Both the position numbers and the translations under genes were made by a program. 64,000 bases of DNA. It comes from Escherichia phage JS10. Where the stretch lies: sequence record EU863409. One strand, 5' to 3'. The notes under the pieces were generated by a model, which was not told the origin of the DNA, ran no database searches, and worked only from the letters and a program-made list of their open reading frames with translations. Shown here one piece after another: positions 24,470 to 61,973 of the stretch (position 1 is its first letter; the number at the start of each line of letters is the position of its first letter).

Positions 24470-24518
24470 CATCAGTTGATAGGTCTATAGTATCATGCCT
24501 ACTGGAGATGTATACCCT
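24470..24518 (-). promoter_or_regulatory. Early promoter cassette (GTATAC-N17-TACTAT plus conserved leader)
   Basis: Conserved motif ttgataggtctatagtatcatg...gtatac read on the - strand; RBS GAGGAAAA follows. Confidence 0.5.
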
Positions 24519-24540
24519 TTTTTAAAGATTTAGAAACAAA

Positions 24541-24563
24541 AATGGGACTCCGAAGAGTCCCAT
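24541..24563 (-). terminator. Rho-independent terminator (- strand)
   Basis: gggactc-cgaa-gagtccc hairpin followed by a T-run on the - strand. Confidence 0.55.
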
Positions 24564-24566
24564 AAC

Positions 24567-24728
24567 TTATGCAATAACTTTACCGAAGCAAGCAGCATCT
24601 GCACGCAATACTGCACGAGCACGAGCTTGAAGCTTATCAACTACCTGATTGATACGCTTGTTAGACGCACGCTTGTAACCAGCGCGTTTAGAGGTTCCGT
24701 CAACTACTTTAACTTCTTTCTTAGCCAT
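24567..24728 (-). CDS. possible small basic protein (about 53 aa)
   Basis: ORF MAKKEVKVVDGTSKRAGYKRASNKR... ending just before the terminator; no strong RBS. Confidence 0.3.
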   Translation of the reverse strand: MAKKEVKVVDGTSKRAGYKRASNKRINQVVDKLQARARAVLRADAACFGKVIA

Positions 24729-25027
24729 TTTTTAAATCTCTTAAATTAGGATGCAGGACTTATTGACATTGCCTGCGCAAGCCCTCAAGGGGAACATAGG
24801 TTTTAGATATTTAACGACAGGATAACCGTAAACCTCGTCATCATAGCTCTTATCTGTTGCACACCGTTAGCTTAAAGGTTCCGGGTTCGATTTCTCGAGG
24901 ATAAGATATATACTGATGGATATATAGGCCTTGAGGCGTACTCCCGATTGGCCATCACCTCGGGGTAGCATGCACTTGCCGCTATAAAATACCATTCAAG
25001 AGGTACACCGTAAAACTGCTGTGGTCT

Positions 25028-25056
25028 TAAAACTATAATGATTCGCAAATCATTAA
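25028..25056 (-). terminator. Hairpin terminator following rIII
   Basis: taatgatt-cgca-aatcatta stem-loop followed by a T-run on the - strand. Confidence 0.45.
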
Positions 25057-25082
25057 TCAGACAGTTCGACGGCTCCTCGATT

Positions 25083-25331
25083 TTACTTCAGGGTAATAAT
25101 AAAATGACGTACTGCTTTACGAGCTGCTGAAGCCAAAGGCTTAGCATATTTCAGTTCATCTTTTGCTTCCAGTTCAGCAGCCAGAGCGGCCTGAGCCGGA
25201 TTAAGATGTTTGAAATAACGCAGGATTTCCAGTGCTTCGGCTTCAACATCAATAGATGCGCCGTAGTTTTCGTGACCGTTGTTCCAAGCGTTGCGTTGCA
25301 GTTCAAGAGCGTGATTCAGATGTTTGTTCAT
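25083..25331 (-). CDS. rIII: rIII lysis-inhibition accessory protein
   Basis: Start taken at internal Met (MNKHLNHALELQRNAWNNGHENYG..., 82 aa); close match to T4 rIII as I recall it. Confidence 0.85.
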   Translation of the reverse strand: MNKHLNHALELQRNAWNNGHENYGASIDVEAEALEILRYFKHLNPAQAALAAELEAKDELKYAKPLASAARKAVRHFIITLK

Positions 25332-25469
25332 TTTAAATTCTCGATTCGAGATAAAGATTGGTGGACACGTTCTTCTGAATTTCACTTCCTTTCGGCAAGT
25401 CTCTCAGTTGTAGTCCACCGCTTAGGATTCTCCGGTTAACTAACTAGTCCGGCAGCCAATCCATATTAT

Positions 25470-25477
25470 TATTTATA
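25470..25477 (-). promoter_or_regulatory. Late-promoter-like TATAAATA (- strand) upstream of rIII
   Basis: Forward tatttata at the 3' end of gene 31. Confidence 0.3.
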
Positions 25478-25801
25478 TCACTTATAAAGACACGGAATAG
25501 CTTTATAGTGACAGGTAACGAATTTCTGTTTAATTTCTTTAGGCTGTTTAATACCTAATGCAACTAAAGGATGTGGCACGTTAGCAATCTTACCAACAGG
25601 AAGTGGAGTCAAATCACCTACTTCACAAAAACCTTCAGGGACATCGGGTCCTACAGAATAAATTTCACAAAGTTCAGGGATTTCACCTTGATGAAGTTTG
25701 CCAATAACGATACCAGATGCAGTAGTTTCTTCATCACCAGCTTGTTTTGGTTCGGAAACGAGAATAACATATTCTCCGACCGCTTTAATAGGAAGTTCCA
25801 T
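25478..25801 (-). CDS. 31: gp31 co-chaperonin (GroES-like)
   Basis: 107 aa; ...[18 protein letters not shown]...[15 protein letters not shown]...[14 protein letters not shown] matches T4 gp31. Confidence 0.9.
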
Positions 25802-25859
25802 ATTTAATCCATGTTGTTTTGTTGATAGATTAATAATAACACGCTATTCTTAAAGCATA

Positions 25860-26126
25860 TTACAGGACAAGCAGAGTTTCAGTCTGAAGCCCATTAATAG
25901 AAATCAGTTTATCGAAACGGAACGAGCGCCAGTCATTAACCTTGGTATCAAATACACGAATATAATTAACCGGTTCTTTATTAGCTTCTGGGCCCGGTGC
26001 TTGAATTTCTTTATACGGGAGAAGGTCCAGGTCGCGAGTACATGTCATACGACGAACGCTACCATCCGCCTTTTCAAACAGAACTTCGTGAGTACCCCAC
26101 GGACAGAATAGTCTTAGCTTTTTCAC
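25860..26126 (-). CDS. hypothetical protein (31.1-position)
   Basis: 88 aa ORF. Confidence 0.5.
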   Translation of the reverse strand: MKKLRLFCPWGTHEVLFEKADGSVRRMTCTRDLDLLPYKEIQAPGPEANKEPVNYIRVFDTKVNDWRSFRFDKLISINGLQTETLLVL

Positions 26127-26162
26127 GGAGTCGAATAGTTTCTTGTTCAGTTAAAATCATAA

Positions 26163-27725: not shown

Positions 27726-27787
27726 TTCGATTTCCTCATTTGTTTCGGTAGGACTACTATACCACAGTCCTACCATGATGTAAACAC

Positions 27788-31458: not shown

Positions 31459-31477
31459 TTTGTTTTCTCCTCATTAG

Positions 31478-31518
31478 TTGGTAAGTCTATACTAACACAT
31501 CATGAGGAGATGTAAACT
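31478..31518 (-). promoter_or_regulatory. Early promoter cassette (GTTTAC-N17-TAGTAT)
   Basis: Variant of the conserved cassette upstream of the 30958-31458 gene. Confidence 0.45.
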
Positions 31519-32665
31519 ACTCTATTACAATTTCTTTCAAATATTTTTCAGGGATTTGGGCCTTATGATTTTTCAAGAACACAGAGTTAATCTGGTCCAT
31601 GACCGTATCATAATTAATACCGTCTACGTACGCCTGCATAAGAATAGAGAACAGCCCTGGGAAGTCTTTGAGGATTAACTGACCGGTGACAGCATAGTCT
31701 TTACGGTCACGGCCCTTGAGCTGAGAATACGCTGCTTCTAACAAAGCCAAGGACTGTTCTAAGTAGTCTAAATGGATACGTTCAAATGCATTGATTTTCT
31801 CGATAGCAAATGAATCAGTGCTGAACAAACCTCGGAGGTCATCGGTTCCACCAGCCACTACAACTTCAAACAAACGTTCGTTGTTGTTAATGGAATCTTT
31901 GGTATGATGCAGTGCGCTATACCAAGCGGTTTTGAGTTTAAAGAACGTGCCATCTTTAAGTACAAAGATAAAGCCTTCAATACCCTCTTGTTTACGGATA
32001 TTGTCAACAAAATCACCTTCGGTGAGTTCATAGCTTTTAACCAAATGCTTACGCAGAGCGCCATCTTTAAACAGTTCAGCGTAAGGGATATATTCACCCG
32101 TTTCGTTATTACGAACGTTCAGTAAGATAAGGTTTGTTTCTTGGTAAGCCAGCACAATACGGTTAGTAGGCGAAACATACTCGAGGTTACATGTATAGCC
32201 TGCTTTAGTAATTTCTTCTAAACGAGCAGCGAAGGCCTCGTTTTCAGGGAGTCGAAGGAAACGTAAAGAATCGTGTACCATCGACGAGTGGATAGAGCCT
32301 TTAGATTTAACAGAAAGATATTGTCTGTCCATGAAGGTAGAAATCAAGGAACCATCTTCCTTAGCCATTACGAGGTCGATATTTTCTTGTGATAAATCTA
32401 AACCAATAGTCAATGGGTTTTCATCGAGATTAAAGAACTTTTGCATAGGACGAGCCGCGATACGTACAGGACCGTTCTCGTCCATTTCAAACATAATGCC
32501 TCGGCACTCTAGTGCGCCGTCTTCCAACCAATCACTGTACGATGCATAGTTATAACTAAAGATGCGATAGTTGACTCCTAGCGCACTCTGGAAGTCTTTA
32601 AAGAAGAACTTAGATTTAGTTGAGTTTTTAACCAAAGTCATCAAGTTATCATATAATTCAATCAT
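31517..32665 (-). CDS. rnlA: RNA ligase 1
   Basis: 382 aa; ...YRIFSYNYASYSDWLEDGALECRGIMFEMDENGPVRIAARPM.KFFNL... matches T4 Rnl1. Confidence 0.9.
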   Translation of the reverse strand: MIELYDNLMTLVKNSTKSKFFFKDFQSALGVNYRIFSYNYASYSDWLEDGALECRGIMFEMDENGPVRIAARPMQKFFNLDENPLTIGLDLSQENIDLVMAKEDGSLISTFMDRQYLSVKSKGSIHSSMVHDSLRFLRLPENEAFAARLEEITKAGYTCNLEYVSPTNRIVLAYQETNLILLNVRNNETGEYIPYAELFKDGALRKHLVKSYELTEGDFVDNIRKQEGIEGFIFVLKDGTFFKLKTAWYSALHHTKDSINNNERLFEVVVAGGTDDLRGLFSTDSFAIEKINAFERIHLDYLEQSLALLEAAYSQLKGRDRKDYAVTGQLILKDFPGLFSILMQAYVDGINYDTVMDQINSVFLKNHKAQIPEKYLKEIVIE

Positions 32666-37842: not shown

Positions 37843-38951
<1,109 letters not shown>

Positions 38952-38952
<1 letters not shown>

Positions 38953-39197
38953 TATAGCACCTCAACATGTGTGATATCGTTTGGCCAAATGATGTCATGA
39001 TGGTTATAATAGGAAATATCTCCCTTAACAAAACGATAATTATTACCACGGCCTTGCTCCCAGGCCAAAGATACCTTATGGAGGTTTTCATAACGGTCCC
39101 TGACCCAAAAGGATTCGTCATATGCTGTATTATTATAAAGTCTATCCAATTCTGCTTCGGTACCAGTAAACTCTTTTAAATTGATAGTAATTTGCAT
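38952..39197 (-). CDS. hypothetical protein
   Basis: Start taken at internal Met (MQITINLKEF...) with GAGGAAAA RBS; track ORF is 38952-39338. Confidence 0.45.
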
Positions 39198-39207
39198 TAT
39201 ATTTTCC

Positions 39208-39447
39208 TCACGCTTTCTTAGCGATTTTCCAGTCAGCTTTAAATTGGTCAACATCAGAATGGTGAATCCAGAAACCAGATGAGCTACCATCTTCATAAAG
39301 AGGACAACCATCACACTCATCTTTCCAGCCCATTTCACACAAAGCTTGTTCGGCTTTTTCCAGAGCTTCCGGATTGTTACCTTGGATTGTAAAGTACCAT
39401 TTGCCTTTAACTTCAGAATCTTTAATTGATTCGCGTTGTAATTTCAT
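39208..39447 (-). CDS. hypothetical protein
   Basis: 79 aa ORF behind an early promoter cassette. Confidence 0.5.
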   Translation of the reverse strand: MKLQRESIKDSEVKGKWYFTIQGNNPEALEKAEQALCEMGWKDECDGCPLYEDGSSSGFWIHHSDVDQFKADWKIAKKA

Positions 39448-39461
39448 TTTATTCTCCTCAA

Positions 39462-39504
39462 GTTGATAAGGCTATAGTATCACTACCATAGCCTTAGGTA
39501 AACA
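39462..39504 (-). promoter_or_regulatory. Early promoter cassette
   Basis: ttgataaggctatagtatcac...gtaaac variant. Confidence 0.45.
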
Positions 39505-39505
39505 C

Positions 39506-39751
39506 TTATTTTTGAATTAAGCCCATATAAAATTCAGCGTCTTCAGCATGCATACCATCGCAATATTCATCAGCCATAAAGCGGGTAAGGTCTTCAAGAG
39601 GACCTTGGACTTCAATTTGCATACTACAGAATTGTGTGTCTTTGATATAAGTCATAGTCAAAGAAGGATAACGATTACGGATAACTTCGTAGGTGTATTC
39701 AAAATCAACGATATCAATATTAACCTTAGCCATTTTATTTTCCTCACTCAT
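39506..39751 (-). CDS. hypothetical protein
   Basis: 81 aa ORF behind an early promoter cassette. Confidence 0.5.
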
Positions 39752-39754
39752 TAG

Positions 39755-39795
39755 TTGATAGGTCTATAGTATCATGCCTATAGACCATGTAAACA
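39755..39795 (-). promoter_or_regulatory. Early promoter cassette with stem-loop (GTTTAC-N17-TACTAT)
   Basis: ttgataGGTCTATAGtatcatgcCTATAGACCatgtaaac; inverted repeat spans the -10 region. Confidence 0.55.
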
Positions 39796-39796
39796 T

Positions 39797-40057
39797 TTAT
39801 TTTTGAATTTTATCAAGCCATTTACCAAGTTTAATCATTTCTTTGGTAGCTTTTTCCATACTTCTGAATTTAACCAGTAAGGGTTGAGCATCAACACCCA
39901 TAACTAAGGTGGTTACAAGACTATGTTCGCCTACAAGCCATAACGAATACGTTTGGATATCGAGGCCGTAATTTCGGTCTTTATGAACTCGTACACCCAT
40001 CACTTCAAATTTCTCACTGGCTTTTTCTACTGCATCCAGGAAATCATCTTTAGTCAT
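39797..40057 (-). CDS. hypothetical protein
   Basis: Start taken at internal Met (MTKDDFLD...) abutting the upstream stop; track ORF is 39797-40120. Confidence 0.4.
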   Translation of the reverse strand: MTKDDFLDAVEKASEKFEVMGVRVHKDRNYGLDIQTYSLWLVGEHSLVTTLVMGVDAQPLLVKFRSMEKATKEMIKLGKWLDKIQK

Positions 40058-40058
40058 G

Positions 40059-40457
40059 TTAGGCCTTAAAAGTTTTTTGCAAAAGTTCAATAATTTGGTC
40101 GACGTTCTGTTCAGTGACAATGCAATGGATTTGGGTCACGCCGGTCTTAGTAACAGGTTTGTCAACTTCATCTTGTCCATCATATTCACGGAAGCAATAG
40201 AACTCATCTTCATGCAATTCAAAATATTCCTCTAGTGTTCCGTCTGCACTAAAAATCTTGCCATTAGCACATTTGATTTTAGTTACAAATTTATCCCCAT
40301 CTGTGGTCGTTGTATCCTTTACTTCAAACCACCCACCATTTTCTTGGATAATATCGACCATATCATTATTATTGATAGGGGTGATATTAATAAAAGCTTT
40401 GATACACTCAGGGCGAAGTTCGTATTTTTTACCAATTTTCATTTTTTTAAATTCCAA
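40059..40457 (-). CDS. hypothetical protein, tandem paralog A
   Basis: 132 aa; shares ...EYFEL.E.EF..F.E.DG... pattern with the adjacent 40447-40818 gene. Confidence 0.55.
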   Translation of the reverse strand: MEFKKMKIGKKYELRPECIKAFINITPINNNDMVDIIQENGGWFEVKDTTTTDGDKFVTKIKCANGKIFSADGTLEEYFELHEDEFYCFREYDGQDEVDKPVTKTGVTQIHCIVTEQNVDQIIELLQKTFKA

Positions 40458-40818: not shown

Positions 40819-40834
40819 TTTTATTTCCTCATGT

Positions 40835-40877
40835 AGTTGATAGGACTATAGTATCATGTTTAAAGGCATTGTAAACC
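40835..40877 (-). promoter_or_regulatory. Early promoter cassette
   Basis: gttgataggactatagtatcatg...gtaaac. Confidence 0.5.
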
Positions 40878-40884
40878 ATTAAAT

Positions 40885-40913
40885 GCCAAAAAGGGAAGAC
40901 CGAAGTCTTCCCA
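40885..40913 (-). terminator. Rho-independent terminator downstream of gene 32
   Basis: gggaagac-cgaa-gtcttccc hairpin followed by a T-run on the - strand. Confidence 0.6.
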
Positions 40914-43136: not shown

Positions 43137-43137
43137 C

Positions 43138-44085: not shown

Positions 44086-44104
44086 ATGAACCTCTGTCCA
44101 ATTA

Positions 44105-44146
44105 GTGTAGAAGGTTATTATATCATGGCCCTGGAAGAAGTAAACA
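44105..44146 (-). promoter_or_regulatory. Early promoter for rnh (GTTTAC-N17-TATAAT)
   Basis: On the - strand: GTGTTTACttcttccagggccatgaTATAATaac. Confidence 0.55.
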
Positions 44147-44152
44147 CTTTGC

Positions 44153-44160
44153 TATAAATA
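44153..44160 (+). promoter_or_regulatory. Late promoter TATAAATA for the tail fibre operon
   Basis: Exact TATAAATA about 33 nt upstream of the gp34 ATG. Confidence 0.55.
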
Positions 44161-47100: not shown

Positions 47101-48161
47101 ACGGAACTAATAAATGGAAAATAACATCTCCATCTACTGGAACTACGTTAACTATCGGCGATACTACTAACGTATTGACATTAAACACTGCTACAGGTAA
47201 TGTTGCTGCACTTAATAACCTTAGCGCTGGTAATGATGTTCAGGCCAAAAATAACTTTGTGTTAAATGGAAGAACTATCGCAACCACCACTGGTGAAGCT
47301 TCTGGTGCTACATTGTCTTTAGGCGATAACTCACAGAATTTAGTGCTCAAAACTCTTGATGCTGGTAATATCGTAGCTAATGGTGGCGGTGCTTATAAAG
47401 TTCTTACCGAGAAAAACGCAGTAGAAATTGTAGACAGAAACTTTGTTAACCAAGCCGGTGATACAATGTCCGGTGTACTCCGTGTGAATGCCCCGGTTCG
47501 TGTATTTGGTACTAAGCCTACATTAGCTTCTCAGGTTCCTACGGCAGAGACAGTTGGCTTCTGGTCTGTTGATATCAATGACGAGGCTACTTATAGTAAG
47601 TTCCCTGGTTATTGGACTATGAAGACCAAACGTCAAGTTAATATTGACACGGTCCAAACTAAACCTGCTGGTGTTTCTGATGAGATATGGAATGCTTCTG
47701 GTTGGTTAACAGAAACCGGTGCATTTAGTTCTCCGGCCATTCGTTATCGTAACGAAGACGGTAGTTTTGGTGATGAAGTTCTTGGTACGTCTGGTCAGAA
47801 ATTACGTGGTGCTTGGTTTGATTATTCTGTTCGTGATAAGGAAGTTAAATATCCTGGTACATTAACTCAGTTTGGTAATACGTTAGATTCATGTTATCAG
47901 GATTGGGTGTGTTATCCTACAGGACTGAATGGCGGTACTATTCGCTATACCCGCACCTGGCAGAAGAATAAAAACGCATGGACTACGTTCTCAATGGTCT
48001 ATACGGCAGATAACCCTCCTTCTGCGGAAGATGTTGGTGCACTGCCGGCAGATAACGCTACAATGGGTAACATTACAATCCTCGATTGGTTGCGTATTGG
48101 TAACGTTCGCATTATTCCTGACCCAGTCACTAAATCCGTTAAGTTTGAGTGGATTGAATAA
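44193..48161 (+). CDS. 34: long tail fibre proximal subunit gp34
   Basis: 1322 aa; many copies of the tail-fibre repeat (ETRRG[IV]A.IAT...E..G.DD...I.P..L); synteny. Confidence 0.9.
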   Translation: MADILKPAFRATSGLDAAGEKVINVAKADYNVLDDGVNVEFFIDENTIQAYDETRGYKKGFAVIHDQRIWVAQRDIAAPSGTFVPGYWTATRTDPKWITVASPTRQLASGEYIAVDSAASFTTFTLPPNPTDGDTIVIKDIGGRVGYNEIKVQSSSAPGGGNQKIVRFGNQFSETLITKPFSYNMLIFANRLWHFWEAGNEERGIRVEPNTAQFQAQAGDNVLRRYTSGAVIKFTLPKYANQGDMVKTVDIDGLGSKFHLIVETFDASSSLGKPGQHSMEFRTSGDGFFVYNSVEKVWYVWDGDRQTRLRVIRDDVELLANESIIVFGPNNTTPQTINITLPTSVAQGDTIKIALNYLRKAQTVNIKAAVGDKIASSVQLLQFPKRSEYPPDTEWVLNDVLTFNGNISYTPVIELSYIEDTTTGGKYWVVAQNVPTVERVDSKDDLTRARLGVIALASQTQANVDHENNPEKELAITPQTLANRVATETRRGIARIATTAQVNQDTTFAFQDDLIISPKKLNERTATETRRGVAEIATQQETDAGVDDTTIITPKKLQTRQGTESLSGIVKYTSTVDTTPATARDTVGTNVYNKNVGNLVISPKALDQYKATQAQQGTVYLSTQSEVNTGQSASGFANSAVSPETLHARVALDTRTGLIEIATQVETDTGTDYTRAVTPKTLNDRKATEGLTGIARIATQEEFDAGTLDNVISTPLKIKTRLNDTARTSVSAASGLIESGTLWNHYTLDIREANETQRGTARLATQTEVNVGTDDKTIITPLKLHSKKSTESSEGIIRVATNTETTAGTSKVLAVSPSGLKYVVQSETTWEATALRRGFVKLTEGALTYSGNKVTGSGVKFNSGTGLYENDDTVLNAANYPKTGYAVSSYEMNKTLQNFLPINATAVNSEKLDGLDSLQFIRRDVDQTVNGSLTLTKQLNLAAPLVSSSTATFTDVTATNSTFGTVNVVNGTNKWKITSPSTGTTLTIGDTTNVLTLNTATGNVAALNNLSAGNDVQAKNNFVLNGRTIATTTGEASGATLSLGDNSQNLVLKTLDAGNIVANGGGAYKVLTEKNAVEIVDRNFVNQAGDTMSGVLRVNAPVRVFGTKPTLASQVPTAETVGFWSVDINDEATYSKFPGYWTMKTKRQVNIDTVQTKPAGVSDEIWNASGWLTETGAFSSPAIRYRNEDGSFGDEVLGTSGQKLRGAWFDYSVRDKEVKYPGTLTQFGNTLDSCYQDWVCYPTGLNGGTIRYTRTWQKNKNAWTTFSMVYTADNPPSAEDVGALPADNATMGNITILDWLRIGNVRIIPDPVTKSVKFEWIE

Positions 48162-48169
48162 GAGGTATT

Positions 48170-49291
48170 ATGGAAAGATTTATGGCAGAATTTGGACAAG
48201 GATATGTCCAGGTTCCTACATTATCTGAAAACAATGCTGTAAGGTATAAACTTAGTATAGCTGGTAGTTGTACTAAGTCTACTAAAAAAGCGTATGTTAA
48301 ATTTCAAGATGGGGACTTCGGTCCCCAGAATTTTCAAAATGGACTAAACCTTATAGAAATTGATGTTAGTGCCGAACCTAAAGTGGTGGCTAACAAAACT
48401 TATAGCTTTACAAAAGATTTTGATGTTATCTCTGAAGCTTTTATTACTTACATAAGTTCAATACCAGCCAATAGAATAGTTTGTTTAGTATCTTCTGGTA
48501 GATTAAATGCTTCACAAAATCTTATTGATTGGTTCCGTGCAGCAGGAAGTACCGCATTTCCATCTAAATGGCTAATAGACCGCTTCGAGCCGTCTTATTC
48601 AGCCTTTTACGTGTCCGGTAGAAATACTATAGTGATGGAACACGTCCTTTATAATGATGGGGTGTTTGTTGAAGATGTTTCTACACCATTAGAAGTCGTT
48701 TTTGACGATATCAGTGATGTAGGCGGGACCGGGTATCCTATAAGAATAGTAGAAGATGAAAACACTTATCTAAGTAATGGTGGAGAAGAAATAAAACGTT
48801 TCCCTACCGAATCTCCTACTACTCCTTGCGCCGATTATAACATGAAGCCTGGGGAATTCTTTTATCTTAAATTCCAAATGATGTGTGACCAGGAATTAAA
48901 AGATTTAGGGACCTCTCAGATGTCTGTTAGATTTTTTAATGCCTCAGGTGCTTTAACAGGGTCGGTTAATATGGAAGTTCCACCTAATGTCCCTGCTGGG
49001 TCTTGGATGACTTTTGAGCGGGTAATTGAAGTTCCTGCTAATACTGAAACATTTACATTGTATGCAAGAAAAACAGTGGCCGATGGAGTCGGCGGTGTAC
49101 GTAATGTGATGTTTGGGGAAGTATCAGAGCCAGAATCACAGCCTAAATCAGCCGAATTTGGTGTAAATGGTATTCGTATGAATTTCGGTACCGAAACTAA
49201 GAATATGGGTACTACCATAGCCCAGTTATACGATAAAACAGGTACTAAACCGGGACAGGTTTGGGTGTCTGAATTTAGAGAAAAATATTAA
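48170..49291 (+). CDS. 35: long tail fibre hinge connector gp35
   Basis: 373 aa; synteny and size. Confidence 0.8.
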   Translation: MERFMAEFGQGYVQVPTLSENNAVRYKLSIAGSCTKSTKKAYVKFQDGDFGPQNFQNGLNLIEIDVSAEPKVVANKTYSFTKDFDVISEAFITYISSIPANRIVCLVSSGRLNASQNLIDWFRAAGSTAFPSKWLIDRFEPSYSAFYVSGRNTIVMEHVLYNDGVFVEDVSTPLEVVFDDISDVGGTGYPIRIVEDENTYLSNGGEEIKRFPTESPTTPCADYNMKPGEFFYLKFQMMCDQELKDLGTSQMSVRFFNASGALTGSVNMEVPPNVPAGSWMTFERVIEVPANTETFTLYARKTVADGVGGVRNVMFGEVSEPESQPKSAEFGVNGIRMNFGTETKNMGTTIAQLYDKTGTKPGQVWVSEFREKY

Positions 49292-49320
49292 GGAACCTTC
49301 GGGTTCCTTTTTCGTTTTCT
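49292..49320 (+). terminator. Rho-independent terminator after gene 35
   Basis: ggaacc-ttcg-ggttcc hairpin followed by tttttcgtttt. Confidence 0.6.
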
Positions 49321-49367
49321 ACAGCCATAAATATATAAAAAGGCTATAACTCCCAAAGGAAACTCAA

Positions 49368-50015
49368 ATGGCAGATTTAAAATTAGGTTCTACAGCAGGA
49401 GGTTCGGTATTATGGCACCAAGGTAATTTTCCTTTAACGCCTGTATCAAACGACCTTCTTTACAAAACATATAAAGTTTACACCGAGTATAATAAACCTC
49501 AAGCAGTTGATAACGATTTCGTTTCAAAAGCTAACGGTGGTAATTATCAGAACAACGTGTATTTTGAAAAAGGTTTGACCTTTAATGATACTAATGGATA
49601 TGGTATTAAATTAGGAGCAAGAACCGCCGGAGCCCCTTTCACAGCTTCTTTCCGTATTAAAGGTGCTTTTGGATATGAAACGGAAGATGGTACTCCGTTT
49701 ATGATATTTGACCCAAGTACAGTAGTAGGTGCTAAACGCCTCACAGTAATGGGTGATTCATTATTCCGTCAAGTTTATGACGAATCAGGTCGTGTATTCA
49801 GCCCAGGCAACACCCCTACTAAAGCTCAAGTAGGATTATCGTTAGTAGATAACGCAAAACAGGTCCAAATAAATAATACTAACATGCAAACAATGACCGG
49901 AGTACTTGCTGCTCCTAACTTTATTTCGCTGAATCCGGCCTCTGACGCAGGACACGTTCCTCGTTTTGACCAGATTGTCATTAAAGATTCTATTCAAGAT
50001 TTTGGTTATTATTAA
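49368..50015 (+). CDS. 36: long tail fibre distal connector gp36
   Basis: 215 aa; synteny and size. Confidence 0.8.
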   Translation: MADLKLGSTAGGSVLWHQGNFPLTPVSNDLLYKTYKVYTEYNKPQAVDNDFVSKANGGNYQNNVYFEKGLTFNDTNGYGIKLGARTAGAPFTASFRIKGAFGYETEDGTPFMIFDPSTVVGAKRLTVMGDSLFRQVYDESGRVFSPGNTPTKAQVGLSLVDNAKQVQINNTNMQTMTGVLAAPNFISLNPASDAGHVPRFDQIVIKDSIQDFGYY

Positions 50016-50023
50016 GAGGCATT

Positions 50024-53000
50024 ATGGCTACTTTAAAGCAAATCCAATTTAAAAGAAGTAAAGTGGCCGGTGTACGTCCGACACCGGCCCAGTTGGCTGA
50101 AGGCGAACTGGCTATTAACTTAAAGGACCGTTTACTTTTTACTAAAGACGATACTGGAGCGATTATCGACCTTGGCTTTGCTAAAGGTGGTAATATCGAC
50201 GGAAACGTTATTCATAACGGTAACTACAACCAGACCGGCGATTACACTCTTACGGGTGTATTTACTCAAATAGGTGATTTTAATCTCAACGGTATTGCTC
50301 GCGTAACTCGTGATATTATTGCTGCAGGTCAGATAATGACACACGGTGGCGAACTTATTTCTAAGAGCGCCTCAACTTCTCACCTTCGTTTCTTTGACGG
50401 TAATGATCGCGAACGTGGCATTATTTTTTCTCCTAATAATGCAGGAGCAACCAACCAAATAGTTAATATTCGCGTACAGGATTATTCTACTGCAAGCGAA
50501 AGCACTTATGCATTTTCAGGTAATGGTTTATTTTCTTCTCCTGAAGTTTTTGGATGGAAATCCGTATCAACTCCAGTAATTTATACTAATAAAGTTATTA
50601 CCAATGGTAAAGTTGCTGGCGATTACGATATATCTTCATTATCAAATAACACTCCATTGGCAGAAAGCGAAACGGCTATTAACCACCTCCGTGTTATGCG
50701 AAATGCTGTAGGAGCAGGTATTTTCCACGAAGTTAATGTTAATGACGGAATAGCCTGGTATTCCGGAGATGGCTTAGACACTTATCTTTGGTCGTTTACC
50801 TGGTCCGGTGGATTGAAAGCCGGTCATTCTATTTCTGTAGGTCTTCCAGGTGGCCCTAAAGGATATTCTGAATTAGGGACGGCTTCAATTGCTCTTGGTG
50901 ACAATAACACTGGTTTGAAATGGAAACAAGACGGCCAGTTCCATACAGTTAATAATGGAGCTTATACTTTACTTACAACTCCGACTGAAGTTACAAGCCT
51001 TAAACAGTTAGTTGCGGGTTATTCAACCAACGGTTCTGATTTAATTCTTCCTACAACTCAAAACTATCCATTAGTTATTGTTAATACTACTAATGATAAA
51101 AACGGCTTCGGCGACGGTCAAACTCTTTTAGGTTATCACCAAAGCGGTAAATATCACCATTATTTTCGTGGTAAAGGCGTAACAAACGTTAATACCGATG
51201 GTGGGTTGTTGGTTACTCCTGGTAACGTTGAAGTCCGTGGTGGTTCTGTTAATATTGACGGTCGTGGTAACGCTTCCACTGTGCTTTTTAAAGGAAGTAC
51301 CTCAGGATATAGTTCAGTTGATAATATAGAGCTCAAAGGTTGGGGTGACACTTTTAATACGGTAGGTGGTTCTCGTAAAAACGTATTGGAAACATCTGAT
51401 GCTACCGGCTGGATGCACTATATTCAACGAAATACGGCAGGTAAAGTCGAATCTTATTTAAACGGCACGATGAACATCGCCGAAGGATTGTCTGTCAGTC
51501 AAGATACATCCTTAAAACGCAATCTGTATGTTTCCAATGAAATTAAAGTCCGCGCTGCTAGTGGTCTTCGTATTTGGAATGATAAGTATGGTGTTATTTT
51601 TCGAAATTCAGAAGACCAGCTGCATATTATCCCAACCAATGTTAATGCTGGTGAAAGTGGCGGATTAGGTCCATTACGCCCATTAAGTATTATGCTAGAC
51701 ACCGGTCGGGTTAAAATCCCTAACTTAGAAGCAGACCAGGTTTCTTTTAAGGGCACCGGTGTATTGGAATTCCCTAATAGTAGCGGCGCATCTTATGCCA
51801 ACCAGAACACGACTAAAGCTCCGTTGTATCAAGCACTTGATGCTGCAACTCAAGCATTTTACCCTATTACTAAGCAGAAAAATGTTGATTCGAACGTAAC
51901 TGTTACTCAAGGTATGGACCGAGCTACAAGTGAATATCGAATTGTTGCTCAAGGTGATTTGCTTGGTGATGGTGATGCTACAGGATTAAAATATTGGCGC
52001 TTTACCAAAGAAGGTAACTTCATGGCTCAGAACCGCTTATATGCAGGTACAGCTTTCATGAATACTGATGGTAATATTGCAGGTTCTATTTGGAACAAGT
52101 ATAGCGGTGCTACTAACCTTGACGCAGCGGTGAGTACTCGTGTGGCTAAAGAAGGCGACACAATGACAGGCCGCTTAACTCTTAAAACCAATTCAGACGC
52201 TATTGTTATTGATTATCCGGCAGATGAAGCTGGTTATGTTAAGGGTAAAAAAGGTGGTGTTGATAACTGGTATGTAGGTAATGGTGGTGCTGATAACGGT
52301 TTAGCCTTCTGGAGCTTCCAATCCCAAGGTGGTATTAATATCACCCATAATGGTGAGGTTGTTTTATCTCCACAAGGTGCTTCAGTATTCAATATAAACC
52401 GAGACCGTATTTATATGAACGGTTCCAACTGGATTGCACATAAATCTGGTGCATGGGGTGACCAATGGGGCTTAGAAGCACCTTATTTCCTTGAGTTTGG
52501 TAGTGTGGGTGAAGACAGTTATTATCCCATTATTAAAGGCCGATCTGTAATTAGTGGTCAGGGTTATACTACTTCTGTTGAATTAGGCATGCGTCGTACT
52601 CCACAAGCATGGGGACAAGCGATAATTCGAGTAGGTAATGCCGAGCGTGGCGACGGTCCTGTAGGTATTTTCGAATTCCACTCTAGCGGTTTATTTTACG
52701 CCCCGACTTTAGTCCAGACTCCTGCCATTGGTGTTGGTACTGTTAACGGATTAGGCTCTCCTAGTATTGCTATCGGTGATAATGATACTGGATTAGTTCA
52801 TGGTGGTGACGGCCGAATCAATATGGTTGCAAATGGTATACATATTGCATCTTGGTCTAGCTCTTACCATATCCATGAAGGTCTTTGGGATACCACTGGT
52901 GCTTTGTGGACTGAGCAAGGAAGAGCTATTATGTCTTATGGTCATCTTGTTCAGGCAAACGACAGCTATTCTACATATGTCCGTGATGTTTATGTCCGTT

Positions 53001-53335
53001 CTGATATTCGCGTTAAAAAAGACCTCGTTAAATTTGAAAATGCTTCTCAGAAGCTTTCCAAAATTAATGGTTACACTTATATGCAGAAACGAGGCCTGGA
53101 TGAGGAAGGTAATCAGAAATGGGAACCTAACGCCGGTTTAATTGCTCAAGAAGTTCAAGCTATTTTACCTGAATTGGTTGAAGGTGACCCTGATGGTGAA
53201 GCTTTACTTCGTTTAAACTATAACGGTGTAATTGGTTTAAATACAGCTGCAATCAATGAGCATACTGCTGAAATAGCAGAATTGAAATCAGAGATTGAAG
53301 AACTTAAAGCTTTAGTTAAATCATTGTTAAAATAA
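50024..53335 (+). CDS. 37: long tail fibre distal subunit gp37 with C-terminal intramolecular chaperone-type domain
   Basis: 1103 aa; C-terminal ...[30 protein letters not shown]... then coiled coil; SDxRxK is the signature of self-cleaving fibre chaperone domains. Confidence 0.85.
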
Positions 53336-53366
53336 TAAGAGGGGCTTAGGCCCCTTGGAGGTTTAT

Positions 53367-54140
53367 ATGGCAGTTGAAGGACCGTGGGTAGGATGGTCTG
53401 CAAGGGTACAAACTGGGGACCCTTGGATGGCAGGAGCAGCCGTAAGATTAAGAATGGGTGTTCCATTTTGGATGAGTAATATGATAGGTCGATCTGTTGA
53501 AGTAATTCACACGCTTGGGGCCGACCATAACTTTAACGGGCAATGGTTTAGAGACCGTTGTTTTGAAGCCGGCGGTGCTCCTATAGTGTTTAATATCACA
53601 GGCAACTTAGTATCATATACTAAAGATGTTCCATTGTTCTTTATGTACGGTGATACTCCTAATGAATATGTTACTTTGAATATTCATGGTGGTGTTCATA
53701 TGTGGGGCCGAGGTGGCAACGGTTCAGTAAATGGAAGCCCAGGCACTAATGGCGGTGACGTAATCCAAAATGATATTGGTGGGCGACTTCGCATTTGGAA
53801 TTATGGTGTGATAGCCTCCGGTGGTGGTGGCGGCGGTGCCGTATCATTACAGAATAGTTGGCCTGCAAATTCTACAGCAGGTGGCGGTGGCGGCAGACCA
53901 TTTGGTCTCGGCGGCGGTGGTGTTAATTGGCCAGGTGGCAATGCTAGTTATGATGGTCCAGGTGGCGCCGGTTACACTTCCCAATTCGGCGGAGGCAATG
54001 GCGGTGATGCTGGAGGTTGGGGCGGAGATGGATGGGGTAATAACTTATCCAGGTCAGGTGGGGGTGCTCCTGGTAGAGCAGTATTCGGTTCCTCCCCATC
54101 ATGGGGCGCTACAGGCACTATCTACGGCTCATGGTTATAG
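53367..54140 (+). CDS. 38: gp38 tail fibre adhesin (T2 type, glycine-rich motifs)
   Basis: Start at ATG with GGAGG RBS (track ORF begins at 53355); about 257 aa; several poly-Gly tracts ([21 protein letters not shown]). Confidence 0.8.
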
Positions 54141-54831: not shown

Positions 54832-55103
54832 AAATTGGAGGTATACATCATTAGATAACGGTGTATATCTTCATACCCTTCATTAAATTGCTCAATAAGA
54901 GTATCACGTTCATCTTCAGTTAAAGACTTAAAGAGTTTATTAAAAGATAGACCGTTAAGTTCCTTTCCATGTTCATTACGAATACCTAACTCATTCAAAA
55001 AGGCAATAAACTCATCACGACGTTGCATGATGTCTTCACAATCCGTTTTAATCAAAATGGAAACAATAGTAGCAATTTCGGAAACGATTTCAATTTTAGT
55101 CAT
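54828..55103 (-). CDS. asiA: anti-sigma70 protein AsiA
   Basis: 91 aa; ...IVSILIK...FIAFLNELGI...EQFNEGYEDIHRYLMMYT matches T4 AsiA. Confidence 0.85.
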   Translation of the reverse strand: MTKIEIVSEIATIVSILIKTDCEDIMQRRDEFIAFLNELGIRNEHGKELNGLSFNKLFKSLTEDERDTLIEQFNEGYEDIHRYLMMYTSNF

Positions 55104-55134
55104 AATATTCTCTTCAATTCAGTACGACATTATC

Positions 55135-55174
55135 TGATAAGGCTATAATAACATATCCTTAGTAATTGTAAACA
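55135..55174 (-). promoter_or_regulatory. Early promoter for asiA (GTTTAC-N17-TATTAT)
   Basis: On the - strand: GTTTACaattactaaggatatgtTATTATagcc. Confidence 0.5.
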
Positions 55175-55317
55175 TGTTCTTCGTTCTTTTTAACATATTC
55201 CTGATACATTTCTTCAATAGGTTCCTGGAACTTAAAATCAGCTCCTAGGAATTCCTCAAAGCACTCCTGCTCACGTGTACGCATGCCTGATACGGTGTTC
55301 TCTAAGTTATGACTCAT
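55159..55317 (-). CDS. possible small acidic ORF (about 52 aa) between arn and asiA
   Basis: ATG-initiated ORF MSHNLENTVSGMRTREQ...; overlaps the asiA promoter, so doubtful. Confidence 0.2.
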   Translation of the reverse strand: MSHNLENTVSGMRTREQECFEEFLGADFKFQEPIEEMYQEYVKKNEEHVYNY

Positions 55318-55327: not shown

Positions 55328-55609
55328 TCAATCAATGTAGTCTTCTAAACCGAAACCATCAATTTCTTCTTGAATTTCTCTTAATACTTGTTCTTCATCT
55401 AGACCGGACCCAAAAGTTACTTTAACATACCCGGGGCGTTCACCAGAGAACCGAATTGTGTATTCTGGTTGGATATAACCAAAACTACTATCCAAATCAC
55501 AAAGGATTTCTGCATAGGTTTCGTCGCCAACAGCAGCATGAATTTTTAAAAGTTCATCAATGAGAATAACTAGTTCAGTTGCTTCGCATGCCTGGAGTTT
55601 AGTAATCAT
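55328..55609 (-). CDS. arn: Arn-like acidic protein (anti-restriction, by synteny)
   Basis: 93 aa strongly acidic protein next to asiA, as T4 arn. Confidence 0.5.
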   Translation of the reverse strand: MITKLQACEATELVILIDELLKIHAAVGDETYAEILCDLDSSFGYIQPEYTIRFSGERPGYVKVTFGSGLDEEQVLREIQEEIDGFGLEDYID

Positions 55610-56824: not shown

Positions 56825-57141
56825 CCTTTAACACGTTGCCATAAAGTTTTCTGTTGAGCTTTATTTACACCAATTGAACGAATGACCGGTTGTGATTCCT
56901 GGTATTCTTTGTAGTCAGCTTTATAGACTTCATAAGCCGCTGGAACAAAGGTGCTGATGGCTGCCATAAAGTTCTTACGAATTCCCATAGAAGCTTCAGA
57001 ACCGCCACGGATGATTAAGTATTTACCCGCTTTAATCTTAACAATAGTGCCGAGATAAGCGCCATGGTACCAAATATCCCAACCTTCTTGAGTAGGTTCT
57101 GCACAACGACGAAGTTCATTAACAATATTCAGCTTGTTCAT
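56812..57141 (-). CDS. hypothetical protein (motA.1-position)
   Basis: 109 aa ORF directly downstream of motA. Confidence 0.5.
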   Translation of the reverse strand: MNKLNIVNELRRCAEPTQEGWDIWYHGAYLGTIVKIKAGKYLIIRGGSEASMGIRKNFMAAISTFVPAAYEVYKADYKEYQESQPVIRSIGVNKAQQKTLWQRVKGWFK

Positions 57142-57159
57142 AATAATTTCCTCAGTCAG

Positions 57160-57792: not shown

Positions 57793-57814
57793 TTTAATCT
57801 CCGTTTCAGTTCAT

Positions 57815-57860
57815 TTATTTGATAGGTCTATAGTATCATGTTTAAAGCAGAAGTAAACTT
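57815..57860 (-). promoter_or_regulatory. Early promoter cassette for motA
   Basis: tttgataggtctatagtatcatgtttaaagcagaagtaaac. Confidence 0.55.
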
Positions 57861-57898
57861 TATTTTGAGCTCTTTTTCAAGAGCTCTAATAAAAGTAC

Positions 57899-58126
57899 TT
57901 ACTTAATGTTCAGATTACGAACTTCGATTTCGTCTTCAGGGGCAAAATCAAACTGTTTGAATTCTGTGTCACCTTTAAATTTAAAAATCATTGTGAAGAA
58001 AGTCAGAACACCGGGTTTTTCTTCACGAACTCCACAGATATCATATTCAATACCATCTACAACCAGTTTGTTAGCAGTCAGAGCATTTTTAGCTTTAACG
58101 ATTTCGTTTTCGATTTTAAATTTCAT
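57899..58126 (-). CDS. hypothetical protein
   Basis: 75 aa ORF flanked on both sides by near-identical promoter cassettes. Confidence 0.5.
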   Translation of the reverse strand: MKFKIENEIVKAKNALTANKLVVDGIEYDICGVREEKPGVLTFFTMIFKFKGDTEFKQFDFAPEDEIEVRNLNIK

Positions 58127-58149
58127 TTTTGTATCTCCGGGTTGTTTGT

Positions 58150-58197
58150 TTCAGTTCATTTATTTGATAGGTCTATAGTATCATGTTTAAAGCAGAT
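58150..58197 (-). promoter_or_regulatory. Early promoter cassette (near-identical copy of the one at 57815-57860)
   Basis: tttgataggtctatagtatcatgtttaaagcagatgtaaac. Confidence 0.55.
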
Positions 58198-58221
58198 GTA
58201 AACACTTTTTTGCACTAAACC

Positions 58222-59869: not shown

Positions 59870-60023
59870 TTTTAATCGTCTTAAGTAAACCGACAAAAGT
59901 AGAAAGAATCCAGCCAATAAACAGAAAACTTAAGAATACCGGACCAGGGGTCCACACACCTAAAAAGAAGCAAACCGAACAGACTATAGCCGTAATAAGT
60001 TCAATAAAAACTAGGATAATCAT
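59862..60023 (-). CDS. possible small membrane protein (about 53 aa)
   Basis: MIILVFIELITAIVCSVCFFLGVW...; GAGGAAAA RBS; overlaps the next small ORF. Confidence 0.3.
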   Translation of the reverse strand: MIILVFIELITAIVCSVCFFLGVWTPGPVFLSFLFIGWILSTFVGLLKTIKND

Positions 60024-60110
60024 ATTTTCCTCATTAGCGTCCGAAGACGCCTTTAGTTTTAAGATTGTTACGATAGAACTGCATCACATGTTCGTTATGG
60101 AAATTACTCA

Positions 60111-60560
60111 TTAGTAAGCCTGCAGAACGAATTTGAAGTTATCAGCCAACATGCGGTTCATTTCTTCCAGGGTCTGGAGGTCAGAACTATGGTTGCGGGT
60201 GAAAGCCATTGCAATTTGACCTTTACCAAAGCCTGTGGTCAGAGGTTTCATTTTAGAAGCCGGCACATAAAGGACTTCATACACAACACCATTCACAGCC
60301 ATAGTGCGAGCTGATTGAGAACGTTTCTTACGGATGTTAGCCACAATACCATCAAGACCTTGAGCTGAACGTTGGTTACCGACATAAAAGCGAGCGGCTA
60401 CGACACGAGAATCTGCTTCACCTTTAACAAAGAAGTAGAAGCCTGGCTGGGCTGAGATTTCTTTAGAAGGCTTACCATTTTGGTATTCACCATTCTTAAC
60501 ATAAGCAACAGTAGTAGCACCAGCAGACAGAACGTTACCGCGAGTCATATAAGTATTCAT
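60111..60560 (-). CDS. ndd: Ndd-like protein (nucleoid disruption), by synteny and size
   Basis: 149 aa; position between gene 52 and rIIB as in T4; sequence not independently confirmed. Confidence 0.4.
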
Positions 60561-60594
60561 ATCAATTTCCTCAGTAGATTAATGTTTTGTTATC

Positions 60595-60640
60595 CAGTCA
60601 ACGAGAACCATTATAACATGATTCTCGAGGTTGTAAACTA
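60595..60640 (-). promoter_or_regulatory. Early promoter (GTTTAC-N17-TATAAT) with flanking inverted repeat
   Basis: On the - strand: GTTTACaacctcgagaatcatgtTATAATgg; cgagaa/ttctcg inverted repeat. Confidence 0.45.
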
Positions 60641-60982
60641 TTTTTGTAGCTGTTCTAAAATAAATCCGCTCGTATAAAAGGAAGCATTATAAACCTTATT
60701 CAGTGGGTTCAAAGCGCGTCCGTAAGTATCACGTAATTCTTTGATAACATTTTCGTAACTCACATAGTAAGCACTACGATAGTCAGGGTCCATGCTCATA
60801 CGGAATTTGATGAATCGATAAAACCCTGTATCCGGGTCTTGAACGAAAACGAAATCCGCGCTTGCCATAGTTTTTGAATCTAACCCAGTAACCAGTTCTT
60901 GATTGAAGGCTGCCAATGCCTCTTTAAGACTGAGTTGCTCAAAGAACATAACCTTAGCATTACCAAAAAATACTTTAGACAT
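60638..60982 (-). CDS. hypothetical protein
   Basis: 114 aa ORF. Confidence 0.5.
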   Translation of the reverse strand: MSKVFFGNAKVMFFEQLSLKEALAAFNQELVTGLDSKTMASADFVFVQDPDTGFYRFIKFRMSMDPDYRSAYYVSYENVIKELRDTYGRALNPLNKVYNASFYTSGFILEQLQK

Positions 60983-60996
60983 GATAATTTCCTCAA

Positions 60997-61296
60997 TTAT
61001 TCAGAGTCGACTTCTTCTGATAATTCCATCAGTTCATCAACCGTGAAACACTCGGTATTATTTTCAATAGCAAAACGCTTTTGATAAAAAGGATAATCCA
61101 AACAGTTTTCAGTACGAATGGGCCGCTCACTATTATCCATTAAAGGAGAAATGCGAATCAATTGTTGACCATTACCTAAGACAAATTTTTCACCAACTGC
61201 GATATCTTTAAAAAGTTTCATAATATTTTCCTCAGAATTAAAGAACTTCTTCAATTTGGATGTATTCGCTATATCCTTCCTCGATGAGGATATCAC
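60997..61296 (-). CDS. hypothetical protein
   Basis: 99 aa ORF; the real start may be the internal Met near 61221. Confidence 0.4.
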   Translation of the reverse strand: MISSSRKDIANTSKLKKFFNSEENIMKLFKDIAVGEKFVLGNGQQLIRISPLMDNSERPIRTENCLDYPFYQKRFAIENNTECFTVDELMELSEEVDSE

Positions 61297-61384
61297 GGGC
61301 GCAGTCAGCGCTGATATAAAAATTAAAACTAACGGTAGTAATCACTTTACCATGCAACTTTACTTTATAAATTCGATTACCCAT
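61238..61384 (-). CDS. hypothetical small protein
   Basis: Start taken at internal Met (MGNRIYKVKL...) with GAGGAAAA RBS; track ORF is 61238-61426. Confidence 0.35.
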   Translation of the reverse strand: MGNRIYKVKLHGKVITTVSFNFYISADCARDILIEEGYSEYIQIEEVL

Positions 61385-61394
61385 AATATTTTCC

Positions 61395-61505
61395 TCAGAA
61401 GTTAAAGAATACACGTACATGGTCAATCATAAAAACGATTGGGAAAATGCTCAATACCATTAACAACACAAACATGTTCCAAATTGCTTTAAGTAAGTTT
61501 TTCAT
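61395..61505 (-). CDS. possible small hydrophobic peptide (about 36 aa)
   Basis: MKNLLKAIWNMFVLLMVLSIFPIVFMIDHVRVFFNF, directly behind an early promoter cassette. Confidence 0.3.
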   Translation of the reverse strand: MKNLLKAIWNMFVLLMVLSIFPIVFMIDHVRVFFNF

Positions 61506-61517
61506 AATCATCTCCAT

Positions 61518-61562
61518 TAGTTGATAGGTCTATAATATCATGTCTAATGGAGATGTATACTG
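61518..61562 (-). promoter_or_regulatory. Early promoter cassette (GTATAC-N17-TATTAT)
   Basis: ttgataggtctataatatcatg...gtatac. Confidence 0.5.
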
Positions 61563-61650
61563 ATTTATGCCAATTTCCACAACAATAAACTAAAACATAC
61601 GCAAATCACTGGGATACAGGCTATCCAAATAAGGCACCACATTTTGCTAC

Positions 61651-61911
61651 TCATAATACTATCTCTTTTATTTCCATAAACCCATCATTCAGTGCATGGC
61701 GGAGTTCATAATGGATATCTATATCATCGACATTATCTAATTTACCGTCGATAAGTTTTTGTAAATCTTTTTTTGACGCTATCAAAGGACGAAGAAATCT
61801 ACAATTAGAAAGGGATAATTCCGTAATAACATCTTCACCTGATGCATCGTACATTGCGGCAACAACTTTACCCGTAACTTTGTGTTTAGCGTAATATAAT
61901 TTGATATCCAT
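61651..61911 (-). CDS. hypothetical protein
   Basis: 86 aa ORF behind an early promoter cassette. Confidence 0.5.
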   Translation of the reverse strand: MDIKLYYAKHKVTGKVVAAMYDASGEDVITELSLSNCRFLRPLIASKKDLQKLIDGKLDNVDDIDIHYELRHALNDGFMEIKEIVL

Positions 61912-61929
61912 TTTGTTTTCCTCTCATGT

Positions 61930-61973
61930 AGTTGATAGGAAGATAGTAACACCATCCATGGTGTATGTAAACA
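61930..61973 (-). promoter_or_regulatory. Early promoter cassette (variant)
   Basis: gttgataggaagatagtaacacc...gtaaac. Confidence 0.4.

Follow-up and report, generated by a model that had tools for sequence, protein, structure and literature searches.

The 64,000-nt stretch of Escherichia phage JS10 DNA analysed here (record EU863409; hereafter the window, numbered from its first nucleotide) carries a repeated element of about 55 bp among its leftward early genes, and this element was confirmed as a real one, a strong early promoter of a JS98-like phage joined to a stem-loop and belonging to the class of promoter early stem-loops (PeSLs). The copies are very probably strong σ70-type early promoters equipped with a leader, a Shine-Dalgarno sequence (SD) and a stem-loop, forming PeSL cassettes of about 55–100 bp that would also provide portable homology for the exchange of open reading frames (ORFs). 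By megablast, window positions 38000–46000 were 97.6% identical to Escherichia phage JS98 (Dhakavirus, Tevenvirinae) and 92–98% identical to many other Dhakavirus genomes; judged from such alignments, the window is JS98-like DNA of a T4-type coliphage of the genus Dhakavirus, and its JS98 counterpart was estimated by offset at approximately 106–170 kb. The range in which a first-pass annotation, made from the sequence alone, had described the family (24470–61973) takes in the leftward early genes, one block of them running from alt/30.x to rnh and another from asiA to rIIB, with the rightward tail-fibre genes in between.

Copies of the element and their promoter signature

The proposal of at least ten recurring copies was borne out by a 54-nt weight matrix, which retrieved from the window 10 strong copies with scores of 40–66, all on the minus strand, versus a maximum of 15 (mean 5.6) in Markov-shuffled controls. 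Likewise, the 22-mer TTGATAGGTCTATAGTATCATG occurred six times at ≤3 mismatches, with none expected from 100 shuffles. Every position previously listed holds a copy (Table 1; copies are named below by their first coordinate), and three weaker variants (44100, with a score of 24, 60610 and 27756) accompany the strong ones. The variant at 44100 reads TTTACT-16-TATAAT with a TG, and the one formerly placed near 60595 is the promoter at 60610, a good T4-type early promoter in which the family core AGACCTATCAA is absent. A looser scan for T4-type promoters added 60610 and 27756, the latter situated within the range first described but missing from the positions listed there, together with 16424–16453 and 2159–2188. 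These last two, minus-strand T4-type early promoters of the form GTTTAC-N-TGnTAnnnT, lie outside the range first described, and the spacer of the 16424 promoter contains a hairpin (CCACA-AGGA-TGTGG, p = 0.033). In the complete genome of Esco_phi_B-01 (B-01), 24 matrix hits scored above 18, all of them on one strand.

Alignment of the copies revealed a common layout, which on the minus strand consists of an A-rich tract, GTTTAC, the spacer, TGaTAcTAT, AGaCCTATCAAcTaa and a variable leader with GAGG or GGAG, followed by ATG. The segment conserved after the –10 across the strong copies is AGACCTATCAA, and upstream of the –35 the A-rich positions of an upstream promoter (UP)-like A/T-rich tract are kept at about –40 to –45. 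The –35 (GTTTAC/TTTACA), a spacer of 17±1 bp, TGn and a TAnnnT –10 are all present in the 10 strong copies and the three variants. The pattern originally given for the family had the right parts (GTTTAC, TGn and TAcTAT) in the wrong spacing, as the literal GTTTAC-N17-TGnTACTAT gives no match because TGn lies inside the 17-bp spacer; the corrected form is GTTTAC-N14-TGnTAcTAT with a spacer of 17–18 bp, the longer one occurring in two copies.

Every copy is flanked by the stop codon of one leftward gene and the start codon of the gene that follows, co-directional with the early genes and on one strand only. The position of the upstream stop codon ranges between 15 nt within the element and 52 nt ahead of the –35, and the predicted leaders measure 20–43 nt. 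The copies cluster in early blocks rich in small ORFs, and several would drive the conserved genes motA, asiA, alc and rnh (the downstream genes are named in Table 1). This succession of –35, TGn, –10, SD and ATG directly upstream of orthologues of T4 early genes upheld the early-promoter reading, and the arrangement of a PeSL, in which an upstream stop codon in an A/T-rich region precedes the –35 and an SD and start codon stand at the 3′ end, is found in the copies as well. The dispersal of so many near-identical copies would also be expected of a miniature inverted-repeat transposable element spread through the genome; such an origin was rejected as extremely improbable, since the copies have a single orientation and without exception fit precisely between a stop codon and the start codon following it, lack terminal inverted repeats and target duplications, and occupy orthologous loci at the same positions across genera.

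Stem-loops and their placement

The stem-loops associated with the promoters were found to be non-random. When the region from –35 to +32 of 15 plausible promoters was folded and the spacer alone was shuffled, 8 of the 15 were more stable than their shuffled versions (each p ≤ 0.033; binomial 7e-9), and among the 13 promoters of the window a nested stem-loop was present in eight and an upstream stem-loop in four. In a set of 56 unique elements drawn from the window and from six relatives, the spacer formed a perfect inverted repeat of ≥8 bp with the downstream sequence in 32%, versus 8% after spacers were swapped between elements. An Rfam search of the window returned no match.

The nested stem-loops adopt two registers. 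In register 1, spacer positions 7–17 pair with leader positions 41–51, the SD included, and in register 2 spacer positions 8–17 pair with the –10/discriminator at positions 26–35. In an ungapped alignment of 43 elements, 55% of the register 1 cells were paired versus 50.6% in shuffles (2/500 reached the observed value; slid controls gave 36–49%), and the covariation score was 0.222 versus 0.170, a value attained in 0/500 shuffles. The covarying arms of this register include CTCCATTAG/CTAATGGAG, CTCCTGTAG/CTACAGGAG, CTCCAGTAG/CTACTGGAG and CTCCTCATG/CATGAGGAG. For register 2 the support consists of complementarity, measured against shuffled or swapped spacers.

Among the individual copies, the SD is covered at 61515 by a 12-bp stem, CATCTCCATTAG/CTAATGGAGATG (z –6.6), and at 31472, whose –35 is overlapped by the rnlA stop codon, the spacer TCTCCTCAT is complementary to the leader/SD sequence ATGAGGAGA (hairpin p < 0.003). 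The –10 is spanned by the pairing of TAAGGCTAT with ATAGCCTTA at 39457 and by that of the inverted repeat GGTCTATAG...CTATAGACC at 39749; the latter, reported earlier at 39755–39795, is real and occupies 39766–39794. At 27756, where 2 nt separate the upstream stop codon from the –35, the –10 falls in the loop of a nested hairpin of 9 bp, GGTAGGACT/AGTCCTACC (z –3.7, p 0.003). A hairpin within the spacer was found at 61926 (CACCAT-GG-ATGGTG, p 0.017), a nested one at 60610 (p 0.013) and a weak nested one at 55128 (TAAGG.TAT/ATA.GCCTTA).

These repeats bear on the possibility that the core and the palindromes constitute an operator to which a DNA-binding protein of the phage or the host attaches, such as a factor shutting off early transcription. 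The conservation of AGACCTATCAA after the –10 does exceed the usual promoter level, and the mechanism of early shut-off in T4 is not settled (PMC2988021). Nevertheless, no candidate binding protein was identified, and the inverted repeats vary in sequence and register among the copies while their arms covary, which points to a structure and not to a fixed binding sequence. The operator was rejected on this variation and covariation, and is regarded as quite improbable.

The position of the stem-loop depended on the room available between genes. The window elements without a nested hairpin (24470, 40831, 58158 and 57813) are exactly those with 40–52 nt separating the upstream stop codon and the –35, and each of these gaps contains a separate hairpin, namely three canonical TTCG-loop terminators with T runs and one GAAA-loop hairpin (Table 1). 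Where the stop codon abuts the –35, the hairpin is nested, so that in the window the split was 0/4 versus 7/8 (Fisher p = 0.01). Throughout the B-01 genome, an upstream hairpin accompanied 1 of the 12 elements with a nested inverted repeat, and this one was weak, versus 9 of the 12 without a nested repeat (Fisher p = 0.003). This either/or split suggests that the nested stem-loop replaces the upstream terminator hairpin, doing its job when intergenic room is lacking, and matches the idea of PeSLs as "composite promoter-terminators" (PMC2839356, PMC4122927).

A different function could be tentatively proposed for the nested stem-loop, which would act mainly in translational gating and not in termination. 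Under this proposal, an anti-SD in the spacer (CTCC...) pairs with the SD only on read-through RNA, and each ORF is translated only from the transcripts of its own early promoter, as in T4 e, soc, 49 and I-TevI, where translation-occluding hairpins are combined with late promoters and early read-through is silenced (PMC3014915). The T4 hairpins and the SD-pairing copies are alike in having the SD in a helix whose 5′ arm lies upstream of the start of an internal promoter. In this subset alone (61515, 31472, several B-01 copies and T4 denV) the SD is found within stems of 9–12 bp, with the predicted start falling between the two arms, and the covariation of the arms agrees with gating too. However, in roughly every second nested hairpin the spacer is paired with the –10/discriminator and the SD stays unpaired, so that SD pairing is found in some copies only, and the either/or distribution of nested hairpins and canonical upstream terminators speaks for a function at the 3′ end of the transcript arriving from upstream. 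Furthermore, the known precedents use late internal promoters, whereas the internal promoter of the window copies is of the early σ70 type.

It is conceivable, if somewhat doubtful, that the spacer anti-SD (CTCC and its covarying neighbours) makes translation dependent on the transcript start, the SD of read-through RNA being held in a 9–12 bp helix and left untranslated, and RNA begun at the cassette promoter being translated for want of the 5′ arm. The read-through RNA would possibly be shielded from RegB as well, the nuclease that cuts the SD of the T4 early gene motA (PMC2988021). If translation did depend on the start in this way, the logic of T4 e/soc/49 would be extended from late to early promoters, and the cassette would be an insulated expression unit.

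Relationship to T4 early promoters and to described PeSLs

BLAST searches with a 58-nt consensus retrieved 686 phage records. Four of the five complete Dhakavirus records listed had 14–19 places per genome and the fifth had six; in Tequatrovirus, many genomes had one place at 96% identity and some had up to seven. The single Tequatrovirus place is the motA promoter, which in ACG-C40 (Tequatrovirus) shares promoter, spacer, core and leader with the window copy 57813. In T4, GTTTACATCTCCTGTAGGTATGATACTATAGACCTATCAACTACAGGAG was found upstream of denV, where the sequence reads CAGTTTACATCTCCTGTAGGTATGATACTATAGACCTATCAACTACAGGAGAACACTAAAATG. In record X04567, from 1986, this sequence was annotated as a putative stem-loop/terminator of ipII, its loop holding the denV –10 and its 3′ arm the ribosome-binding site of denV; the T4 record AF158101 lists no promoter features in 63300–65300, and the denV promoter was not confirmed from it.

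T4 early promoters have been described as "uber" promoters, in which UP, –35, TGn and –10 elements are joined by additional consensus regions (Hinton review, PMC2988021), and those of denV and motA resemble the window copies in their –35, TGn and –10 signature. Letter for letter, the core TGATACTATAGACCTATCAAC also precedes denV in T4 and motA in many Tequatrovirus genomes, and is therefore not specific to this phage. On the counts obtained, the peculiarity of Dhakavirus is the number of loci that share a near-identical form, amplified to 24 matrix hits in B-01 versus 1–7 places in Tequatrovirus.

The PeSLs of RB49/phi1 (Arbiol et al. 2010, PMC2839356) and of PST/T4 and nt-1/KVP40 (Comeau et al. 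2014, PMC4122927) have the same layout as the window copies: a stop codon in an A/T-rich tract, σ70-type –35 and –10 boxes, an SD and an ATG, with a stem-loop that lies between the boxes, spans them or immediately precedes them. Both are repeated in early regions and flank ORF insertions, deletions and replacements, and the window promoter fits the consensus TTTACW...TAYWAT of the PST/T4 type (PMC4122927). The window copies agree with PeSLs in this anatomy, in genomic setting and in several exchange events, so the family noticed in the first-pass annotation is real, was correctly interpreted and is of a kind already known, its stem-loops being present and non-random. Several differences were observed. 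The window stems are A/T-rich, with the spacer paired to the –10 or the SD, whereas those of RB49 join a G run to a C run; the window copies are far more uniform, with 22/22 identity of the core at four loci; they precede conserved early genes (motA, asiA, alc, rnh), unlike the described PeSLs, found mainly with orphan ORFs; and they are not enriched at breakpoints.

JS98 appears in the 2010 paper solely for "PeSL-like sequences" near gene 43 (PMC2839356), and literature searches found no PeSL catalogue for Dhakavirus and no usable map of T4 start sites. The present results extend the PeSL picture to the JS98 group (Dhakavirus), members of which serve phage-therapy work, and add to it a core literally common to T4 and Tequatrovirus promoters, an element-ORF-element module that has moved between genera, and a stem-loop that is nested or separate according to intergenic room.

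Recombination at and around the elements

BLAST chains of the early blocks against JS98, NC-G, IME08, MN04, CLB_P2 and B-01 delimited 18 variable sites, three of which had junctions inside elements (24471/24483, 57839–58163 and 61550–61586). At 24471/24483 the alignment to all six relatives breaks, with an extra 837–874 bp in JS98, NC-G, IME08, MN04 and B-01 (30.7 and 30.8 in JS98) and the CLB_P2 sequence compared not extending beyond the break. The copy at 24470 is a hybrid, with a 5′ part orthologous to the JS98 30.8 promoter and a 3′ part made of the family core and the 30.6 leader. The window has neither 30.7 nor 30.8, the JS98 counterpart interval being 5019–5855 of L001; there, the 30.7 promoter also belongs to the family and contains a nested stem of 12 bp, TTTGGTACAGGT/ACCTGTACCAAA, and what stands before 30.6 is a canonical terminator and not a promoter. 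At the 61515 element, CLB_P2 and B-01 have insertions with junctions inside it or at its upstream edge (61565/61550 and 61568/61586).

Comparison of the flanked ORFs among relatives showed that between gene 52 and motA Dhakavirus genomes have no small ORF, one (of two unrelated alleles) or two, each preceded by an element. The window copies 57813 and 58158 lie here in tandem, 345 bp apart, an arrangement in which recombination between neighbouring PeSLs would yield mini-circles. ORF A, of 75 amino acids (aa), occupies this interval in the window, MN04 and B-01, and is replaced or absent in JS98, CLB_P2, IME08 and NC-G. An unrelated ORF, B (71 aa), is found in JS98 and CLB_P2, IME08 combines ORF B with a third one, ORF C, and NC-G has one element and no ORF, the two window copies collapsing onto it with a 45-bp overlap. 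ORF A is 98.7% identical in aa to gp013 of ACG-C40, and unrelated to JS98 orf253 and to the second IME08 cassette. The segment running from 58183, within the upstream element's –10, to the motA start (57785), with ORF A and the second element in it, is 95–99% identical to ACG-C40, and outside these limits motA is 53–71% and gene 52 is 71% identical; a module of such identity between such flanks indicates that an element-ORF-element unit was exchanged between genera. In addition, the IME08 frd.3 promoter (L003 16035–16088) has flanks identical to those of the window and the motA-type spacer ATCTGCTTTAAACATGA, which looks like the signature of short-patch conversion between paralogous elements.

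Proposed mode of action

The sequence comparisons showed the anatomy of the elements, the non-random hairpins with their either/or placement and the junctions inside elements; a transcription start, a termination or occlusion activity and a recombination pathway are what we infer. Transcription by host RNA polymerase would begin some 7 nt past the TAcTAT box, the likely position being the A of CCTATCAA, and would give a leader of 20–40 nt for one small early gene or operon, and the stem-loop would serve the transcript arriving from upstream. With 40–52 nt free after the upstream stop codon, this would be an ordinary tetraloop terminator with a T run; with the stop abutting the –35, the stem-loop would be nested in the promoter, its 5′ arm in the unconstrained spacer and its 3′ arm formed by the –10/discriminator region or by the leader including the SD. 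In either layout upstream transcripts would be ended, attenuated or 3′-stabilised, and in the SD-pairing layout the ribosome site would also be hidden on read-through RNA. With about 45 bp nearly identical at many loci, the cassettes would act as portable homology, and crossovers and short-patch conversion between copies could delete, insert or replace the small ORFs that they flank, within the genus and between genera.

Several results weigh against this proposal or limit it. The promoter and start sites of the copies are predicted from homology and consensus, and initiation right after infection without phage factors would follow from identity to T4/Tequatrovirus promoters. In register 2, which spans the –10, covariation was tested and none was found, because its 3′ arm is the invariant core. 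The nested hairpins have no T run, have loops of 8–23 nt and were not flagged by a terminator scan, which makes efficient intrinsic termination doubtful, and a nested or upstream hairpin accompanies 21 of the 24 B-01 copies and is missing from the other three. As for modular shuffling, the junctions in elements at three sites and the between-genus module support it, but no breakpoint enrichment at elements was found relative to a gene-boundary null, since elements are present at about 13 of about 62 leftward gene boundaries, a share comparable to 3/18 variable sites. The elements are thus one recombination substrate among several and no demonstrated hotspot, which tempers, in this sample, the idea of the "PeSL hotspot". 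Other indels are flanked by direct repeats of 3–26 bp, the longest being the translation-initiation motif TGAGGAAAATATTATG.

This distribution of breakpoints would also agree with convergent selection for an optimal promoter only, in which the copies never exchange and have no role in recombination, and T4 early promoters are known for an unusually long shared consensus (PMC2988021). Such convergence is nonetheless unlikely, as identity reaches positions without known polymerase contact, junctions are found inside elements, and the module shared between genera ends within the upstream element and just past the downstream one. Moreover, the 11-nt spacer segment CTGCTTTAAAC is identical at 57813, at 58158 and in the IME08 frd.3 promoter, where, with the flanks on both sides identical, it stands in place of an unrelated spacer.

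Table 1. Coordinates of the elements and associated features in the window
Feature	Coordinates	Strand	Remarks
Element before gene 30.6	24470..24523	-	Strong copy; matrix 64.8; hybrid copy
Canonical terminator upstream of the 24470 element	24563-24542	-	TTCG loop and T run
Divergent family member before orf212 homologue	27756..27785	-	Weaker variant; looser promoter scan
Element before alc	31472..31525	-	Strong copy; matrix 53.4
Element before frd.1	39457..39510	-	Strong copy; weight matrix; 18-bp spacer
Element before frd.3	39749..39802	-	Strong copy; weight matrix
Element before frd.2a, downstream of gene 32	40831..40884	-	Strong copy; weight matrix; no nested hairpin
Canonical terminator upstream of the 40831 element	40912-40893	-	GGGAAGACTTCGGTCTTCCC+T5; TTCG loop
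Weak variant before rnh	44100..44153	-	TGaTATAAT; matrix 24; core not conserved
Element before asiA	55128..55181	-	Strong copy; matrix 48.8
Element before motA	57813..57866	-	Strong copy; matrix 62.3; SD is GGAG
Hairpin upstream of the 57813 element	57890-57868	-	GAGCTCTT-GAAA-AAGAGCTC
Cassette ORF A, between two elements	57899..58126	-	75 aa
Element before cassette ORF A	58158..58211	-	Strong copy; matrix 66.1
Canonical terminator upstream of the 58158 element	58245-58226	-	TTCG loop and T run
Early promoter before ndd	60610..60638	-	Weaker variant; TTTACA-16-TATAAT with TG; 11/12 matches
Element before ndd.4-like ORF	61515..61568	-	Strong copy; weight matrix
Element before orf262 homologue	61926..61979	-	Strong copy; weight matrix; 18-bp spacer
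Copies of TGAGGAAAATATTATG	61219-61234, 61382-61397, 39195-39210, 60018-60033, 57139-57154, 60980-60995, 55101-55116, 39731-39746, 16393-16408	-

Other variable regions

The motif TGAGGAAAATATTATG occurs on the minus strand in nine copies at ≤2 mismatches, versus 0.1 expected. The small ORF 61246–61381, absent from NC-G, IME08 and CLB_P2 (26-bp overlap), stands between two perfect copies, and another copy lies at the 38956/39194 breakpoint; located as they are at indel edges, these copies suggest that conserved ribosome-binding leaders are crossover points too. A 93-aa ORF at 55328–55609 on the minus strand of the window, which none of the six relatives shares (junctions 55318/55606), involves no element; having no promoter of its own and an ATG overlapping the upstream stop codon, it looks translationally coupled. 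NC-G contains between genes 32 and 59 a 606-bp insertion annotated as a homing endonuclease (L002 17699–18328), which is missing from the window at 41924/41927. Finally, the distal tail-fibre/adhesin genes on the plus strand at 47000–54100, homologues of gp37 and gp38, are 72–91% identical to JS98 or unalignable between flanks of about 97% identity, the usual host-range mosaic.

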